DNA of 35,126 nt from a virus (Duplodnaviria; Heunggongvirae; Uroviricota; Caudoviricetes), in the IMG/VR virus record IMGVR_UViG_2619619134_000012. The stretch is one strand, 5' to 3'. The translations under genes and the position numbers were made by a program. The notes below the pieces were generated by a model. It was given only the letters and a program-made list of their open reading frames with translations. It had not been told where the DNA came from and did not search any database. Within the stretch, counting starts at the first letter, position 1. Each line of letters starts with the position of its first letter. Below are positions 698 to 33,216 of this stretch, piece by piece.

Positions 698-1060
698 GGG
701 GCTGATTCTGGATTCGACGGGATTTGCGAAACCCAAGGTGCATGCCGAGGGGCGGTTGGCCTCGTAAAAAGCCGCAAAAAATAGTCGCAAACGACGAAAA
801 CTACGCTTTAGCAGCTTAATAACCTGCTTAGAGCCCTCTCTCCCTAGCCTCCGCTCTTAGGACGGGGATCAAGAGAGGTCAAACCCAAAAGAGATCGCGT
901 GGAAGCCCTGCCTGGGGTTGAAGCGTTAAAACTTAATCAGGCTAGTTTGTTAGTGGCGTGTCCGTCCGCAGCTGGCAAGCGAATGTAAAGACTGACTAAG
1001 CATGTAGTACCGAGGATGTAGGAATTTCGGACGCGGGTTCAACTCCCGCCAGCTCCACCA
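698..1060 (+). ncRNA. ssrA: tmRNA (transfer-messenger RNA, 10Sa RNA)
   Basis: 363 nt starting GGGGCTGATTCTGGATTCGACGGG and ending in the tRNA-like ...GGTTCAACTCCCGCCAGCTCCACCA; internal tag reading frame 787-819 GCAAACGACGAAAACTACGCTTTAGCAGCTTAA encodes ANDENYALAA-stop. Confidence 0.95.
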
Positions 1061-25364: not shown

Positions 25365-27764
25365 TTAGTACCATTGACGCCATTTGTCATCTTCCTGCAG
25401 CCTCTGGTTACGGTAAAAAATACGTAAACCGGCACCGGATGGAATGCTGCCGCCACGCAGAAGCAAATCAATCTCAGATGCACTACCTTCAAACCCTCTG
25501 GCAGTCAGTTCTGCCTCAAGCTGCAGGCGCTGCTGCTCCGAAATACTCTGTATGTATGCTTTTTTCCGCTTCGGTTTTACCAGTCTCAACCTGGCTGTCA
25601 GCTCCCGCCGTTCCTTCTGGCCCATGTTGTGGAGATATTCCTGCAGCTCCTTCTCATCCATGGTTTTAATATCGGGTAAATCACCCCCTGATTTGTTCAG
25701 ATTTTCAACAGGGGGACAGTTATTGCCACGAGTCCAAGGGGCGCAAGCGCCCTGGTCGGCTGCCGCCTCCTGAACGTCAACGGCCTTACGAACCTTTTTC
25801 CACTTCATCGCGTGCGTGCAAATCTTGCCCTCTGCAATCGGGGACCAGATGCCATAGATACGGATACCGTGATCGCCGTAGGCGCTCGGTTCGTCGTTAA
25901 GCTCATAAGCAGTGCGGACAAGGTGATGTTTGCGGGGAACCAGTACACCGCCCTGCTTCATGATGTAGGTGGCAAAGCAACCCGCATCTGCAGCCGCCAG
26001 TACCGCATCCAGACGTGGATTATCCAGTACAGGCGCACCCGCTTTGCGTTCGCCCTGTACTCTCGCCGCCTGACCAGCCAGCAAGCGCAGCTCGCGGTAT
26101 GCCTGGCGCCCCGGAATACCAAAGAAACGAAATTGCTGGACACGGTGCAGTGACGCCCAGGCGCTGACATGCTCGGCGCTGTCACGCAGTGATCTGCCGG
26201 TTTCTTTGCTGATTTCTTTAGCCAGCCCGCGCCCGTCGATGTTCTTACTGATGTATTTGGCGATGTAGCTTGTCGGTGTGCCCTTGCGCGGGTTGATTAG
26301 CTCGGACTTGAAGCGCGGTCCGGTATTGGTGCCCAGCTCCTCGCGGTCTTCACGGATGGCAAACTTTCGCAGCAGCGCGGTGATGGAACGACGGTCTTTT
26401 TTGCGCATAAAGCACAGAAGATGCCAGTGCACAGTGCCGTCATGGTGCGGCTCTGCAACGCGGACGCCGTACCAGCGCAGCCCGGCTTTGTGCATGGCCT
26501 TGCGGAAAGCGGCGAATGTATCAACCAGATAGTCACTGCTCTGCCGGACCGTGGCGCTGGTCCATTTCGGATTAGGTCTGCCGTTGTTGAGGGTTGCGTG
26601 GAAGCGTGACGGGCAGGTGATGGTATAGAACACGGCGCAGTCTCCGCGCATTTCCGCGATCAGCTCCAGCCCTTTAACACAGGCCATCATTTCATTACGG
26701 CGGTGCGCCGGGTTGCTGTTGCTGGCGTTCACCACATCTTCCATATCCAGCGTGTCACCGTCTTCGTTGACCAGTTCATGCGAGCGGAAGAACTCCAGCG
26801 ATTTGCGGCGCTGCTCGCGTTTGTGGATCACGGCTTCATAGCTGACATACGGGGACGCTTTCTTGTTGACCAGGCAGACGGCGCGCAGCTGCCCCCCCCG
26901 CCACTCGCAGCGCATCTGCCACAATTTGCGATACCACCAGTCCGCGCACAGCATGCGAGCCAGCGACGGTGGGATCAGTTCATAAGGCACCGACTTGCGG
27001 CGGCGCTTTTTGCGGCGCAACTGCTCAAAGGCAGGCGGGATGACCTCAAGGCGCATGGCTTCTGCTGCAACCCTTTCCCATGCCTGGCGGATTTCTTCTG
27101 GTTTAACATCGTCACTGACAAACAGATCACTGCAGGCCGTATCAAGACACATGCTCATATGTGCCGCAACCAGCGTGGAAAGGCGCTTTACCTGCTCCTG
27201 ATTCATTTCAGGCAGTACCAGCAACCCCTCCAGCCCGTCCTGGATCGCCATGAACCGGAAAGACGCAGACACCTGGCTGTCACGCACGCGCTCCAGCCGC
27301 TCCAGACAAGGCCTGATTGTTTCGCGCAGATAGCGGGAATAAGCTTTAGCCCTGCCCAGGCTATGGAAGTATTTAATCCGCTCCAGCAAAGGCTTGCTGA
27401 TATGGGCAGGCATGGCGCTAACATCGGCAATAATCACCAAATCGGGATTAACGCGCTGCTGTTCGCGGGCCATTTTGGCATGGCTAATCAGCCGATCCTG
27501 CTCCATTTCACGCTGGACAGGATCGCGGGATTCATTAAAGAAATAGAGTTCCCAAACCTCATCACTCAGCGCCTCACGGCGCAGATGCTCCTGCTCGTTA
27601 TCCGCAGCATACAGAGTGATGAGGTTTGAAAGCGCAGACTCCGGCGCAACGTCCGCCGGTTCCAGATACGGATTAACCGCTTTTTTTGTGGTATTCCATG
27701 GAAAGGCTGCGGCGGCCTCATTCGAGCCGCCGGTCGCCGCCATTTCGAAGCTGGTCAACTTCAC
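25365..27764 (-). CDS. A: Replication initiation protein A (rolling-circle nickase)
   Basis: 799-aa ORF with P2 gpA-type motifs ([22 protein letters not shown]; [12 protein letters not shown]); exact start uncertain. Confidence 0.85.
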
Positions 27765-27816
27765 AGGCCAGCCCCCATCATGTAAGACTTGACGAATACT
27801 ACTGCCGCCTCTGCGT

Positions 27817-28761
27817 TTAAGGCGTTTCCGTAGGTTCGAATTCGTCCCACTCTGGAGGCAGCCCCATTAACCAAAGGCTCAAGGCCGGATTTAACTGGCC
27901 TCCATTTTCCATCTGTGCATTTGAGCCAGTCAGCATCTTTCCAGAAGCCGTTAACCGGACCGGGCCTGCAATCTGTGCCACCACATCCAGACGATCTGTC
28001 GATATTTTCCCTTTGCGAATCCTCCCCCCAGGATCCCCCCCCCCTTGTGGTCGCTGGCTGTTGGCGTGGGCCAGCCAGCCATTTTTACCTGTTGCGCAAG
28101 GCTGCTGCCGGACATGCCCTCGGTAATCCCTCGCCCTCCCCGCCTGCTGTCGCTGGCACTCGGAGTTGTCCAGCCCGAAAGCTGCGCAGCTGTCTGCAAG
28201 TTCAATCCTCCCTGACGGCCCGCGTTGCTGGGATGCTTCCAGGCATTCGCTGTTGGTGTGGACCACCCAATAAGTTCTGTCCCGGATGTTCGGGGCACCG
28301 ACGCTCGCAGCCGGAAACGCACTCGCCCCGAAGGCATAACCCAAGGCTTCCACGTCAGTCTGTACAAGGTCGATCCAGTCATTTGCGTCAGCACTTGCAG
28401 ATTGCTCGCCAAAGACAACGACAGGGCGACGCTGCCCGACCAACCAATGCATGGCGGGCCATAAGTGCCGCTCGTCAGCAAACCCTTTTCCTTTGCCTGC
28501 CGCGCTGAAAGGCTGGCATGGGCAGGAACCTGTCCAGACTTCTCTGCTGTCTTCCCAGCCCACACGGCGCAGGGCATATGACCAAATGCCAACCCCTGCA
28601 AAGAAATGGACCTGAGCAAATCCTCGTAAATCATCGGGTCTGACATCTTCAATACTCCTTTCATCTACAACACCCGGCATAATGCGACCGGCAGCCATGT
28701 GTACGCGCAGCCGCGCAGCTGCAAACGGGTCTATCTCGTTGTAATAAGCCCACGCACTCAC
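27817..28761 (-). CDS. DNA (cytosine-5) methyltransferase-like protein; coding frame ambiguous (possible frameshift or phase-variable gene)
   Basis: Frame starting at GTG 28761 carries C5-methyltransferase motifs I ([12 protein letters not shown]), IV ([15 protein letters not shown]), VIII ([13 protein letters not shown]) and a motif IX-like C-terminus ([19 protein letters not shown]); an overlapping second frame and a G10 tract complicate the call. Confidence 0.45.
27951..28664 (-). other. Alternative-frame ORF (237 aa) fully overlapping the methyltransferase-like gene, with three tandem GW[STP]TP[TS]A repeats
   Basis: Open across about 700 nt in a second frame; tandem repeat units start near 28279, 28175 and 28077 (period about 100 nt); passes through the G10 tract. 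Confidence 0.3.
28035..28044. repeat. Homopolymer tract C10 (G10 on the coding strand) inside the methyltransferase-like gene
   Basis: Plus strand ...GGATCCCCCCCCCCTTGTGG...; a second C6 run lies at 28024-28029. Confidence 0.9.
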
Positions 28762-29615
28762 GCCTGCACCTCATACTTAACGCAGCAATCAGGACCGCCA
28801 GCAGGATCAAAACCAATCCAGTGATGAGGTTTAGAAGTAGCGATGATTTCCACGGCGGACTTACCATCACCGGCAGCCACACCCATGCTGCGCTTTGCCG
28901 TCAGCCGATAGCGGGAGAAATTGCGATAAAGAGAACGGGTCAAAGATGTATCACTGTTGGACACAATGACCGGATGACCTTCTGATGAACGACGCTCAAG
29001 AATAGACGCCAGATGATACTGATCATCCTCAGTAAATCCGGCGGTGTGATAACCGGTAAACGTTCCGTCATATGGCGGATCGCAATAAACCACATCACCA
29101 GTCTTCAGCAGTGCCAGTGTTTCCTCATAGCTGGCACAGATAAACGTTGCACGTTGTGCCTTTTCTGCAAAAGCGCGTATTTCGTTTTCGGGGAAGTACG
29201 GATTTTTATAATTACCGTAAGGAACATTAAAGTGACCACTCAAGTTATAGCGGCACAGTCCGCGATAACAATGGCGATTAAGATAAATAAACATGGCTGC
29301 GCGGCAATCCACAGGCCAATCACGTCCATGGTTAAATTCTTTTCGAATATCGTAGTAATCCTCTGCCGATTTATTTTTAGCAAATAAATCCTTGCCAATT
29401 GAGATTAATAATTCAGGTCCGCTTTTAATGGCATTGTAAAGACTTATCAGATCTGGATTAATATCCGCGACAAGATAATGAGGATAGTCTGTCTCCATCA
29501 TCACAGCGCACGAACCCGCGAAAGGCTCAACCAGTCGCGGGCCTGCTGGAAGGTGTTTTTTCAGTTCTGGCATTATGGCGGTTTTATTACCCGCCCATTT
29601 CAGGATGGTGCTCAT
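28758..29615 (-). CDS. DNA adenine (N6) methyltransferase, Dam/D12 class
   Basis: Start at ATG 29615 ([18 protein letters not shown]...); motifs KWAGNK, FAGSCAV and DPPY; stop overlaps the start of the cytosine methyltransferase-like gene. Confidence 0.85.
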
Positions 29616-31556: not shown

Positions 31557-32189
31557 ATGATACAGGTGAAAGCTGGCGAGAATACAGGGGGTAGAGAGGC
31601 TATCCATAGGTTGATGGCGGCCTATGATTTCAAGTCCAGACAGCAGCTATGCGATCACCTAGGCGCATCTAAAAGCACCATGGCAAACAGATACTTAAGG
31701 GACAGCTTTCCTGCAGAATGGGTGATCCAATGCGCTCTTGAAACAGGCGTTTCGTTACTCTGGCTAACCACAGGGCAAGGCGAACCAGGAGCAAAAATTG
31801 ATGATAAAAAAAGTATCAATATCGTGAACTCCAGCAAGGTTAAACCTCTTTCTGAACTTATATCGCCAGAGATCGACAAGGCTACCCTTATGGGAGGTTC
31901 GTTGGTTGAAGCCGGGAAGGCCATCATTGATAGCAGCCTGCTTCCCCCTGACTCAAACGAGCTGCTTCTCGTAAATACCACTGGCGATTCATATTTAGTT
32001 GACCGTAACCAGACACCACCAGTGAATGGGATGTGGTTGGTCGATATCGACGGGATAAAAAGCATTGTTAAGCTAACTCGCCTTCCGGGAAACAGATTAG
32101 TTGTGCATCAAGATGACTCTTCGTTTGAGTGCAGCCTGGATGATATCGAGGTTGTTGGCCGCGCATTGAAAATTATTAAGAGCCTTTGA
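31557..32189 (+). CDS. cI: CI-like immunity repressor (phage 186 CI family)
   Basis: 210-aa ORF with helix-turn-helix region AAYDFKSRQQLCDHLGASKSTMANRYLRD and CALETGVSLLWLTTGQGE; immediately upstream of int as in the 186 cI-int operon. Confidence 0.75.
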   Translation: MIQVKAGENTGGREAIHRLMAAYDFKSRQQLCDHLGASKSTMANRYLRDSFPAEWVIQCALETGVSLLWLTTGQGEPGAKIDDKKSINIVNSSKVKPLSELISPEIDKATLMGGSLVEAGKAIIDSSLLPPDSNELLLVNTTGDSYLVDRNQTPPVNGMWLVDIDGIKSIVKLTRLPGNRLVVHQDDSSFECSLDDIEVVGRALKIIKSL

Positions 32190-32190
32190 T

Positions 32191-33216
32191 ATGACCATCA
32201 GAAAACAGCCGAACGGAAAATGGTTGTGCGAGTGTTACCCGAACGGGCGTGACGGTAAGCGCGTGCGCAAGCAATTTGCGACAAAGGGCGAGGCTGTAGC
32301 ATTCGAAAACTTCACCATGGATGAAGTGAACAAAAAGCCGTGGCTGGGTGAAAAGGAAGATCGGCGGCGTTTGTCAGAATTGATTGAGCAGTGGCATTCA
32401 CTTTATGGGCAGACGCTGGCTGACCCCAAACGCCTTATGGCAAAACTCAGCATTATTTGTAATGGCCTTGGTGATCCCATCGCCTCAGAGTTAACCGCAG
32501 GCGATTTTACGAAATACCGGGAAGCACGTCTAAAAGGTGAAGTAAAAAATGAAGATGGCGTGCTTATGTCGCCAGTTAAACCCCGCACGGTAAACCTTGA
32601 GCAACGCAACCTATCCTCTGTTTTTGGCACGCTGAAAAAGCTGGGCCATTGGTCAGCCCCAAACCCGCTAGCCGGTCTGCCAACATTCAAAATTGCCGAA
32701 GGTGAATTGGCGTTCCTAGCCCCGGAAGAAATTAAACGCCTGCTGGATTCCTGTGCTGAATCTCAAAGCCCCAGCTTACTGATGATTGCAAAAGTATGCC
32801 TAGCCACTGGTGCACGATGGAGTGAAGCAGAAAACCTACAAGGACACCAGCTGTCGAAATATCGCATCACCTACACCAAGACCAAAGGCAAGAAAAACAG
32901 AACCGTGCCAATATCACAAGATCTGTATGACGAACTACCCAAGAACAGAGGGAAGTTATTCACGCCATGTAGAAAAGCCTTTGAGCGCGCAGTGAAGCGG
33001 GCCGGAATCGATCTGCCAGAGGGTCAATGTACTCATGTGCTGCGCCATACATTCGCCAGCCATTTTATGATGAACGGCGGAAACATACTGGTGCTGCGCG
33101 ATATTCTAGGCCATGCCGATATAAAAATGACAATGGTATATGCTCACTTTGCACCCGATCACCTCGAAGATGCAGTGACAAAAAACCCGCTTCACAATCT
33201 CAACTGGAAGCGCTAA
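32191..33216 (+). CDS. int: Tyrosine integrase of the prophage
   Basis: 341 aa with the C-terminal catalytic region HVLRHTFASHFMMNGGNILVLRDILGHADIKMTMVYAH; adjacent to the right att repeat. Confidence 0.9.
   Translation: MTIRKQPNGKWLCECYPNGRDGKRVRKQFATKGEAVAFENFTMDEVNKKPWLGEKEDRRRLSELIEQWHSLYGQTLADPKRLMAKLSIICNGLGDPIASELTAGDFTKYREARLKGEVKNEDGVLMSPVKPRTVNLEQRNLSSVFGTLKKLGHWSAPNPLAGLPTFKIAEGELAFLAPEEIKRLLDSCAESQSPSLLMIAKVCLATGARWSEAENLQGHQLSKYRITYTKTKGKKNRTVPISQDLYDELPKNRGKLFTPCRKAFERAVKRAGIDLPEGQCTHVLRHTFASHFMMNGGNILVLRDILGHADIKMTMVYAHFAPDHLEDAVTKNPLHNLNWKR

Follow-up and report, generated by a model that had tools for sequence, protein, structure and literature searches.

A phage cytosine-5 methyltransferase gene with a second, nested reading frame, frameshifted at a G tract in one prophage copy

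The minus strand at positions 27761..28761 of a 35,126-nucleotide stretch of caudoviricete DNA (IMG/VR record IMGVR_UViG_2619619134_000012; the whole stretch is referred to as the window) carries a cytosine-5 (C5) methyltransferase gene with two long, overlapping open reading frames (ORFs). The account that we consider probable is that one stretch of DNA encodes both a protein, alpha, and a second protein, beta, nested within the alpha gene, that the two chains make up a C5 enzyme, and that the copy in the window is frameshifted at a tract of ten G residues (G10). Alpha (~332 amino acids (aa), frame 0) would be the catalytic large domain, with motifs IV, VI, and VIII and a motif X-like helix, and beta (~275 aa, +1 frame) would be translated separately, from its own Shine-Dalgarno sequence and ATG. 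By analogy with M.EcoHK31I, the active enzyme would be an assembly of alpha and beta, in which motif IX and probably target recognition, which alpha lacks, come from beta.

An earlier sequence-only reading of this DNA had pointed to two overlapping long frames, a methyltransferase, a G tract, and tandem repeats. As an observation this was partly confirmed, and its interpretation was partly supported. It did not contain the third frame with the true methyltransferase C-terminus (GNAL, with a stop overlapping the start of gene A), the need for a single-G slip to be an insertion if both frames are to be restored, the peptide nature of the repeats, or the rearranged N-terminus.

Two reading frames over the same DNA

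Two long frames lie over the same DNA at the coordinates first listed for them, namely a 314-codon ORF at 28761..27817 (-), which begins at GTG 28761, and a 237-codon ORF at 28664..27951 (-) in the +1 frame. With frames numbered by the minus-strand coordinate modulo 3 (the +1 frame being frame 2), frame 0 holds the catalytic N-terminus on the 5' side of the G tract, and frame 2 holds a segment containing RLRASV together with a series of W-x-T-P units. On the 3' side of the tract in the window, the tail of beta is in frame 0 and the alpha C-terminus (GNAL) is in frame 1. In intact relatives, beta (~275 aa) is nested wholly within the ~332-aa alpha gene, on the same strand and in the +1 frame, and in window coordinates it would span 28646..27817 within 28761..27761.

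The overlapping frames are a feature of the whole of a very large phage and prophage family. An alpha profile scan of IMG/VR yielded 80 loci with 47-83% alpha identity, and both frames are open from end to end in 79 of them (69 matched by a motif scan, and 10 of the 11 unmatched loci read by eye), so that the overlapping gene, one of the explanations listed in the sequence-only reading, is real and conserved. The beta ORFs in these loci are 235-370 aa long, and the third frame contains 7-25 stops. Matches to the window gene at the DNA or protein level were found in ESSI2_ev129, SI7, SEN5, epsilon15, Klebsiella phages, BcepC6B, N15 (gp58 being a family member), and K1ind3. Epsilon15, the Klebsiella phages, SEN5, BcepC6B, Pseudomonas PMG1, and Rhodobacter RcBigEagle all have both long frames, and the motifs in them are the same.

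The second frame has been noticed before by some annotators, as in K1ind3 and the PHROGs, and its function is discussed in none of the records found. The K1ind3 record (L104, GU196281.1) annotates both nested coding sequences, 650-1579 and 738-1535, as "C-specific methylase" (outer) and "putative Mte8-like protein" (inner), and RefSeq names the inner protein "DNA methyltransferase" under phage K1ind2 (identical sequence). The annotation of PMG1 called the +1 frame. The PHROGs place beta in phrog_1008 and phrog_31772, labelled "DNA methyltransferase". A look through the literature did not reveal where the name Mte8 comes from; it may point to a characterised beta-like protein, and no paper treating nested frames in phage C5 methylases was found.

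For the Paenibacillus polymyxa plasmid pAP1 (L106, 837-2327; NZ_CP040830.1), the C5 methylase has the normal motif order LFSGIGG...GYPCQPFS...GENV...HRRDR...GNAV, and its +1 frame is open for ~325 codons, reading LSWRASVTPGRRLLFRL...LWATP..., three more WPTP units, and then QLNPTWVECLMGFPLDWT. With a normal motif order in a Firmicute, the nesting is tied neither to a rearranged N-terminus nor to Proteobacteria. A second copy of the QLNPxWVECLMGFPxGWT element follows in pAP1 after two stops.

The nested beta frame is under purifying selection. Synonymous shuffling that keeps the protein and the codon usage, applied to 52 analysable relatives, predicts 1.56 +1-frame stops per sequence between alpha codon 45 and motif VIII, and 2.74 frame-0 stops per sequence in the middle region, and none of either kind was observed. 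The third-position diversity of alpha is ~0.5 in codons 1-84 and past the beta stop, and 0.13-0.33 at codons 85-96, 121-168, and 265-300, which lie under conserved beta segments including GGQLNP..SRWLMG. At conserved four-fold sites of alpha, third positions have a mean diversity of 0.616 where beta does not overlap (n = 14) and of 0.356 where it does (n = 38; one-sided Mann-Whitney p = 4.6e-4), with several overlapped sites at 0.00-0.05; the same test with regions picked after seeing the profile gives p = 9e-7, a circular value.

In the repeat region, the third positions of beta are the most variable (pi 0.51-0.65 versus 0.22-0.45). The sequence-only reading had counted about seven of ten substitutions in the conserved 5' part of the repeat units on third positions of the second frame. 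The count itself did not hold in the window, where 8, 8, and 14 of 30 variable sites fall on codon positions 1, 2, and 3, respectively, and the signal at the level of the family is real.

These data bear on the proposal that only alpha is a protein and that the +1 frame is kept open by the alpha sequence, by G+C content, or by nucleotide constraint. Beta belongs to no Pfam or NCBIfam family and gives a poor structural model, and over motifs IV-VIII the conserved codon positions 1 and 2 of alpha account for some of its conservation, as this proposal would have it. However, beta aligns throughout, including the ~100-codon middle region where alpha is unalignable, and it is conserved there from Rhodobacter and Paenibacillus to Escherichia. 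In addition, the beta third positions are the most variable in the middle region, alpha is held fixed at its four-fold sites where beta motifs overlap them, the shuffles predict stops that are never seen, and the +1 frame is still open in pAP1, a low-GC plasmid. We regard an open frame without a protein as most improbable.

Features of the alpha and beta frames

The 314-codon ORF matches Pfam PF00145 with 45 bits (cutoff 22) over residues 75-178, and alpha aligns to motifs I and IV-VIII of M.HhaI by hidden Markov model (HMM) alignment and by hhalign, two long stretches of the M.HhaI sequence used in the latter having been confirmed by the HMM alignment. The catalytic motifs PCQPFS (IV), GEQ (VI), and IRDR (VIII) align to M.HhaI residues 72-173. 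The C5 signature (motifs I, IV, and VIII) first noticed in the frame from 28761 is therefore borne out by PF00145 and by M.HhaI; a profile search of both frames, which had been proposed as a check, matched PF00145 with the first frame and nothing with the second. A weaker match to TIGR00675 scored 30 bits (cutoff 100).

The N-terminal segment of alpha (28045..28761, -; frame coordinate modulo 3 = 0), delimited by PF00145, the M.HhaI alignments, AlphaFold2 (AF2), and Foldseek, reads in the order AYYNEID (motif II/III-like), HFFAGVG (I), PCQPFS (IV), GEQ (VI), IRDRTYWV (VIII), and a low-complexity linker. The C5 order of I, II-III, and IV is not kept. M.HhaI residues 34-68, which comprise motifs II-III, are absent between motifs I and IV in the hhalign alignment, and this 35-residue gap agrees with the unusual closeness of motifs I and IV in the sequence-only reading.

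The AYYNEID segment (window 28600-28761 (-); residues 1-66 of the intact alpha homologue P0385) resembles motifs II/III and precedes motif I. The AF2 model of P0385, built from an alignment of 59 homologues, places a strand-helix-strand from this segment ahead of the motif I strand, and TIGR00675 aligns residues 5-174 of the epsilon15 protein to profile positions 24-166. At the N-terminus of alpha, the methyltransferase fold thus looks rearranged in its sequence order, and motifs I and IV are closely spaced because the II/III-like segment stands ahead of motif I.

In the P0385 model, the predicted local distance difference test (pLDDT) score is 80-95 for residues 1-170, ~25 for residues 172-312, and confident for a C-terminal helix at 313-330. 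Foldseek of the alpha model against M.HhaI gives E = 7e-7 over ~170-195 columns, which is roughly the large domain and about half of M.HhaI. In the family alignment, alpha aligns well at residues 1-167 and 270-323 and is unalignable between. Motif VIII of alpha is followed by a linker of ~100 unconserved residues, the conserved element NGFW...CRDGKWRP, and a GNA[IL] helix that resembles motif X.

A target-recognition domain and motifs IX and X are not found together on one polypeptide. Alpha has the motif X-like GNAL helix only, and the sole motif IX-like element lies in the +1 frame. The motif IX-like C-terminus that the sequence-only reading had assigned to the frame from 28761 is not native to that frame. 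It is part of the nested frame, and only the frameshift at the G tract connects it with alpha in this copy. In the closest phage records, ESSI2_ev129 and SI7, the annotated methylase is a single frame from the N-terminus to the GNAL tail. Alpha alone is an incomplete enzyme, with nothing resembling the small domain or motif IX.

In beta, a helix-hairpin module (GSTLYKLTWK...RLRAS) is accompanied by G-W-P-T-P-T-A-x-D units, the number of which varies, and the C-terminal element LNPxxSRWLMGxPxxW resembles motif IX in its pattern. In the window, the N-terminal and repeat segment of beta, delimited by the ORF listing, the family alignments, and the selection signal, extends over 28045..28646 (-) from ATG 28646 and contains three W-x-T-P units. 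The ATG is preceded at 8 nt by a Shine-Dalgarno sequence, AAGGAG (28655..28660, -), built from the rare codons AGG AGT in the DERSIEDV of alpha. The arrangement (A/C)GGAG + 8 nt + ATG was found in most of 74 family members, including the GC-rich Burkholderia phage BcepC6B, and one sub-clade starts beta 13 codons downstream. Gene callers call beta from its ATG in thousands of assemblies. From these features, and by analogy with M.EcoHK31I, we infer that beta is made separately, in addition to alpha.

The intact 275-aa beta P0001 is identical to the beta of the window except at the tract. A beta profile matches 18,438 clusters (at 50% identity) with E <= 1e-3, and 5,777 with E <= 1e-30, and a scan of Pfam, NCBIfam, and PDB sequences with beta gave no match. 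In the AF2 model of beta, the only confident part is a helix and beta-hairpin at residues ~70-120. Long beta matches (P0250, P0365, P0253, and others) were searched for single-chain relatives, and none carries PF00145. An alignment of alpha-linker-beta fusions, intended for complex-like modelling, was not used, since MAFFT set beta rows on the alpha half. One beta-family protein, P0167 (492 aa), has a C-terminal HNH endonuclease domain (PF01844, residues 396-435).

The three units of beta are GWSTPTA (28248..28268), GWTTPSA (28155..28175), and GWPTPTA (28056..28076), all on the minus strand. Three GW[STP]TP[TS]A motifs in the second frame had been reported correctly, starting near 28279, 28175, and 28077; their starts are 28268, 28175, and 28076. 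The accompanying claim of tandem ~100-nt DNA repeats failed, as Tandem Repeats Finder found no array in the repeat region (scan of 27700-28800) and any two units have 21-24 mismatches in the first 48 nt. With this null result and only about half DNA identity between units, the DNA-repeat reading was dropped; the recurring element is a short peptide motif, spaced by 93 and 99 nt.

The number of W-P-T-P units varies from 1 to ~5 among close relatives, and the length of the alpha linker follows it; beta is 211 aa long in P0065, 220 aa in P0078, and 329 aa in P0097, versus 275 aa in P0001. The junctions at which unit number changes lie exactly at GWPTPTA|SDHKGG, as recombination between units would give.

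The distribution of motifs over the two frames also permits another reading, that a single chain is made by two programmed ribosomal frameshifts, from the alpha N-terminus into the +1 repeats and motif IX and back to motif X of alpha. The canonical order (VIII, target recognition, IX, X) is obtained only by reading frames 0, +1, and 0, and in this clade the second junction has G-rich runs close to it. Nevertheless, in all tested sequences frame 0 is open through the unconserved middle and the +1 frame is open over ~120 upstream codons, neither of which frameshifting needs, and beta is under selection well 5' of the supposed first junction. Programmed frameshifting would call for a conserved slippery site with the zero frame closed downstream of it, and neither is present; G runs of five or more are absent from the whole gene in 41 of the 74 family members, and in most the tract site is interrupted (AAGGGCGGT). 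The studied analogue, M.EcoHK31I, uses separate initiation. We consider recoding very unlikely, and it was rejected on these grounds, as the proposal of an open frame without a protein was on those given above.

The G tract in the window and its relatives

The G10 homopolymer lies at 28035..28044 on the minus strand (C10 on the plus strand), exactly where the sequence-only reading had placed it, and it shifts both ORFs. An exact-pattern scan of IMG/VR returned three loci 97.8-99.75% identical to the window (L009, L010, and L011). In L011 and L009 (98% identical), the site reads CACAA GGGGGG AT ATCCT and both ORFs are uninterrupted, alpha being 332 aa long and ending MMGAGL before its stop, and beta 275 aa long (MSDPMIY...TETP, then stop), which answers the call for orthologues with an intact frame. 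In L010, the site has G8 followed by T and is one base longer than in L011 and L009. By alignment to the relatives, the tract in the window is two bases above the in-frame state, so that this copy is a frameshifted methyltransferase, as had been suggested.

Simulation of the tract in the window gave the same result, in that G8 or G11 restores both ORFs (alpha 332 or 333 aa), and G9 or G12 gives the state of L010. A single-G slip, which the sequence-only reading had said would switch frames, restores both ORFs as an insertion, at G11, and does not do so as a deletion.

In the copy in the window, the G10 tract puts both frames out of register and yields a hybrid alpha and a truncated beta ORF. 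Beyond the tract, the beta C-terminal segment (27817..28034, -), with its motif IX-like element at 27847-27894, is in phase with the alpha start and not with that of beta. The alpha C-terminal segment (27761..28034, -), identified from the relatives and the AF2 helix of P0385, with its motif X-like GNAL element at 27818-27829, is in a third frame, in phase with neither start. An out-of-frame tail (27951..28034, -) closes the truncated beta ORF. The predicted products are a 314-aa hybrid of alpha (motifs I-VIII), linker, and beta tail, without motif X, and a 231-aa beta without the motif IX-like end, and the last 90 codons of alpha are unread. The enzyme would accordingly be off in this copy. 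Slippage to G11 or G8 may switch it on again, because the tract varies among near-identical prophages.

This copy is frameshifted at the G tract, and the tract is hypervariable. Among IMG/VR and Logan/ENA contigs, prophages that share at least 99.87% identity across 6.5 kb carry three alleles. The intact form, G7-TAT, was seen on 3 contigs, G8-TAT on 23 (from at least 27 samples), and G10-AT in the window and in the NCBI contig JORY01000153.1 (L012). Within an ORF, among close relatives, these length alleles are thus in different phases, with G7 in frame, G8 at +1, and G10 at +2. The exact 314-aa hybrid protein was found on 2 contigs only, and megablast against complete E. coli genomes gave no close copy of the locus.

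That the G10 tract arose in sequencing or assembly and the gene is really intact, which had been listed as a homopolymer error, is unlikely. Homopolymers are error-prone, and the scarcity of the exact hybrid is in keeping with an error. The G10 tract is unlikely to be one, however, because its two carriers differ by three single-nucleotide polymorphisms elsewhere in the 6.5 kb and are therefore not one sequence, and because the G8 frameshift allele recurs on its 23 contigs. The tract also differs from that of the relatives by substitutions (A to G and T to G), and not in length alone.

Phase variation of the methylase by the G tract is plausible from this pattern of alleles. The rival view is plain decay, in which the gene is dying in a resident prophage and the tract, a hot spot of mutation, regulates nothing. 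Frameshift alleles exceed intact ones in this lineage (23 + 2 versus 3 contigs), and beta-to-alpha hybrid ORFs broken at the same G-rich site were found in 8 of the best 120 beta clusters, at 75-100% identity. The long tract is derived and lineage-specific, near relatives having G6 (G6AT) and most of the family AAGGGCGGT at that site. Conversely, no disabling change other than the tract is present, one inserted G restores both ORFs, and the near-identity of the rest of the 6.5-kb region between alleles indicates that the lesions are recent and potentially reversible. Decay is possible, if somewhat doubtful; it overlaps with the account of a frameshifted two-chain enzyme and differs from it only on whether the switching is used.

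In another clade (L016, L017, L020, L026, and L028), a G8 run lies at a different site of beta (RQGGV; CAG GGG GGG GTA), where it keeps the frame. Such tracts recur in this gene family because of its G-rich Gly-Gly codons.

Several observations weigh against the two-chain account. The AF2 model of beta alone is weak (mean pLDDT 54.7), and Foldseek of this model gave no match at E <= 0.001. The beta profile matches M.HhaI by hhalign only at motif IX (KLHPRECARVMGYPDSYKV), over 19 residues and with E = 0.38, which is not significant; the match is a resemblance of pattern, by which homology is not demonstrated. Pfam sees neither motif IX nor motif X, even in an artificial chimera of alpha(1-167), beta, and the alpha tail, and its scan of the chimera and of two tail fragments gained nothing over alpha alone. 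The motif split of M.EcoHK31I (I-VIII and X on alpha, IX on beta) is consistent with the pattern here to this extent. One locus of the 80, L053 (IMGVR_UViG_3300010399_000014), has a stop inside beta in its most conserved motif (GSTLF*MTWKE, the asterisk marking the stop), with alpha intact. Frameshifted alleles are frequent, G8 outnumbering G7 by 23 to 3 contigs in this lineage, and the enzyme could be dispensable in lysogens rather than switched. Finally, the case for beta as a protein made in the family is drawn from sequence evidence, and the likeness to M.EcoHK31I is one of layout and motif distribution, taken by description.

A broader proposal may hold as well, and we advance it tentatively. 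The nested +1 ORF would be an obligatory and so far unrecognised small-domain subunit, carrying motif IX and target recognition, in C5 methyltransferases of phages and prophages, a very large class that extends from Proteobacteria to Firmicutes and comprises ~18,000 clusters at 50% identity without a family. M.EcoHK31I would then be the rule, the number of W-P-T-P units would tune specificity, and the G tract would be a joint, reversible switch in this lineage.

Neighbouring genes, implications, and comparison with known systems

The locus, a C5 methyltransferase gene flanked by Dam and gene A, belongs to the early region of a P2/186-like prophage. Its extent (27761..28761, -) is that of intact alpha in the close relatives L011 and L009 and in the tract simulation. 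The upstream gene (28758..29615, -) encodes a D12 N6-adenine (Dam) methyltransferase (PF02086; a 285-aa gene in L012), and the downstream gene encodes a replication gene A protein (PF05840), which together place the locus in such an early region. No endonuclease gene lies beside the methylase in the window or in the relatives, where the neighbours are Dam and gene A.

The Dam stop overlaps the alpha start in GTGA at 28758-28761, the alpha start codon being the GTG. In the same manner, the alpha stop (TGA, 27763-27761) overlaps the start of gene A (GTG 27764) in GTGA at 27761..27764 (-), and this second overlap is also present in ESSI2_ev129, SI7, and SEN5. The joining of Dam, alpha, and gene A by such overlaps suggests translational coupling. 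In the window, the overlap with gene A is broken and the coupling would be lost, because the 314-codon ORF stops at 27817. The frameshift puts the upstream stop 53 nt before the start of gene A, and the expression of the replication protein might be reduced.

Elsewhere in the window, a full-length transfer-messenger RNA (ssrA; Rfam RF00023, 296 bits) lies at the left end, at 698-1060 (+), and the prophage appears to be adjacent to it. At the far end, there is an ORF for a CI-type repressor (31557-32189), a homologue of which is called in L012, and next to it a 341-aa ORF (32191-33216) that is possibly an integrase, by its position. Antisense ORFs opposite the methylase (27915-28508 (+), 197 aa) and gene A (26703-27629 (+), 308 aa) are probably by-products of G+C-rich coding on the opposite strand.

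For the window itself, an apparently bizarre three-frame gene is explained as one frameshift in a two-frame gene, and a hypervariable tract is flagged. If beta is a real subunit, thousands of annotations as "DNA cytosine methyltransferase" describe half an enzyme and thousands of hypothetical proteins are the other half, and cloning alpha alone would give false-negative assays of activity or specificity. The family would also rank with the largest and oldest examples, in bacteria and phages, of nearly complete dual coding on one strand, and would be a good system in which to follow the evolution of two proteins on one sequence. The variable repeat array would then become a candidate for what sets methylation specificity in phage anti-restriction.

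Phase-variable methyltransferases with homopolymer tracts are found in the phasevarions of Haemophilus, Neisseria, and Helicobacter. The present gene is similar to these in that its methyltransferase ORF contains a poly-G tract whose length alleles put near-identical strains in different phases. It differs in that the tract is a recent derivative of G6AT and is not conserved, that any switching here is hypothetical, and that one tract would switch two overlapping ORFs at once. In phage lambda, one of the spanin genes Rz and Rz1 is embedded entirely in the +1 frame of the other, and the products form one complex; in contrast to the present case, they function in lysis, and the embedded gene takes up a much smaller part of its host gene.

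Within the same family, epsilon15 gp41, N15 gp58, BcepC6B gp33, and K1ind3 ORF30/ORF29 have alpha sequences 47-58% identical to the present one, with both frames open. Unlike the window gene, these copies are intact; most of the records annotate one frame of the two, and none found discusses a function for the nested frame.

Among natural C5 methyltransferases, a 2012 paper names only M.AquI and M.EcoHK31I as consisting of two polypeptides (PMC3404938). M.AquI (CYCGRG) is made of two polypeptides that must associate (PMC3404938). It is split serially, with motifs I-VIII on alpha and IX-X on beta, whereas here beta is nested and motif X stays on alpha.

M.EcoHK31I (YGGCCR) is described in PMC2836561 and PMC3404938 as a two-polypeptide C5 methyltransferase in which beta lies within alpha in another frame, carries motif IX, and arises from internal initiation codons, with both chains needed for activity. 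The nesting here is of the same type, with beta wholly within the alpha gene, on the same strand and in another frame, and the layout matches; the distribution of motifs fits in its pattern (I-VIII and an X-like helix on alpha, a IX-like element on beta), the comparison being one of descriptions. The sizes are also comparable, if the plasmids pET3a-M38 and pET3a-C23 are read as indicating 38 and 23 kDa, versus ~36.5 and at most 29.5 kDa here. M.EcoHK31I is part of a restriction-modification system, whereas the present gene is an orphan between Dam and a replication gene, with no cognate endonuclease in its neighbourhood. In addition, the alpha N-terminus is rearranged here, and beta is almost coextensive with alpha and bears the W-P-T-P array, such that, judged from its sequence, it looks like the target-recognition part as well.

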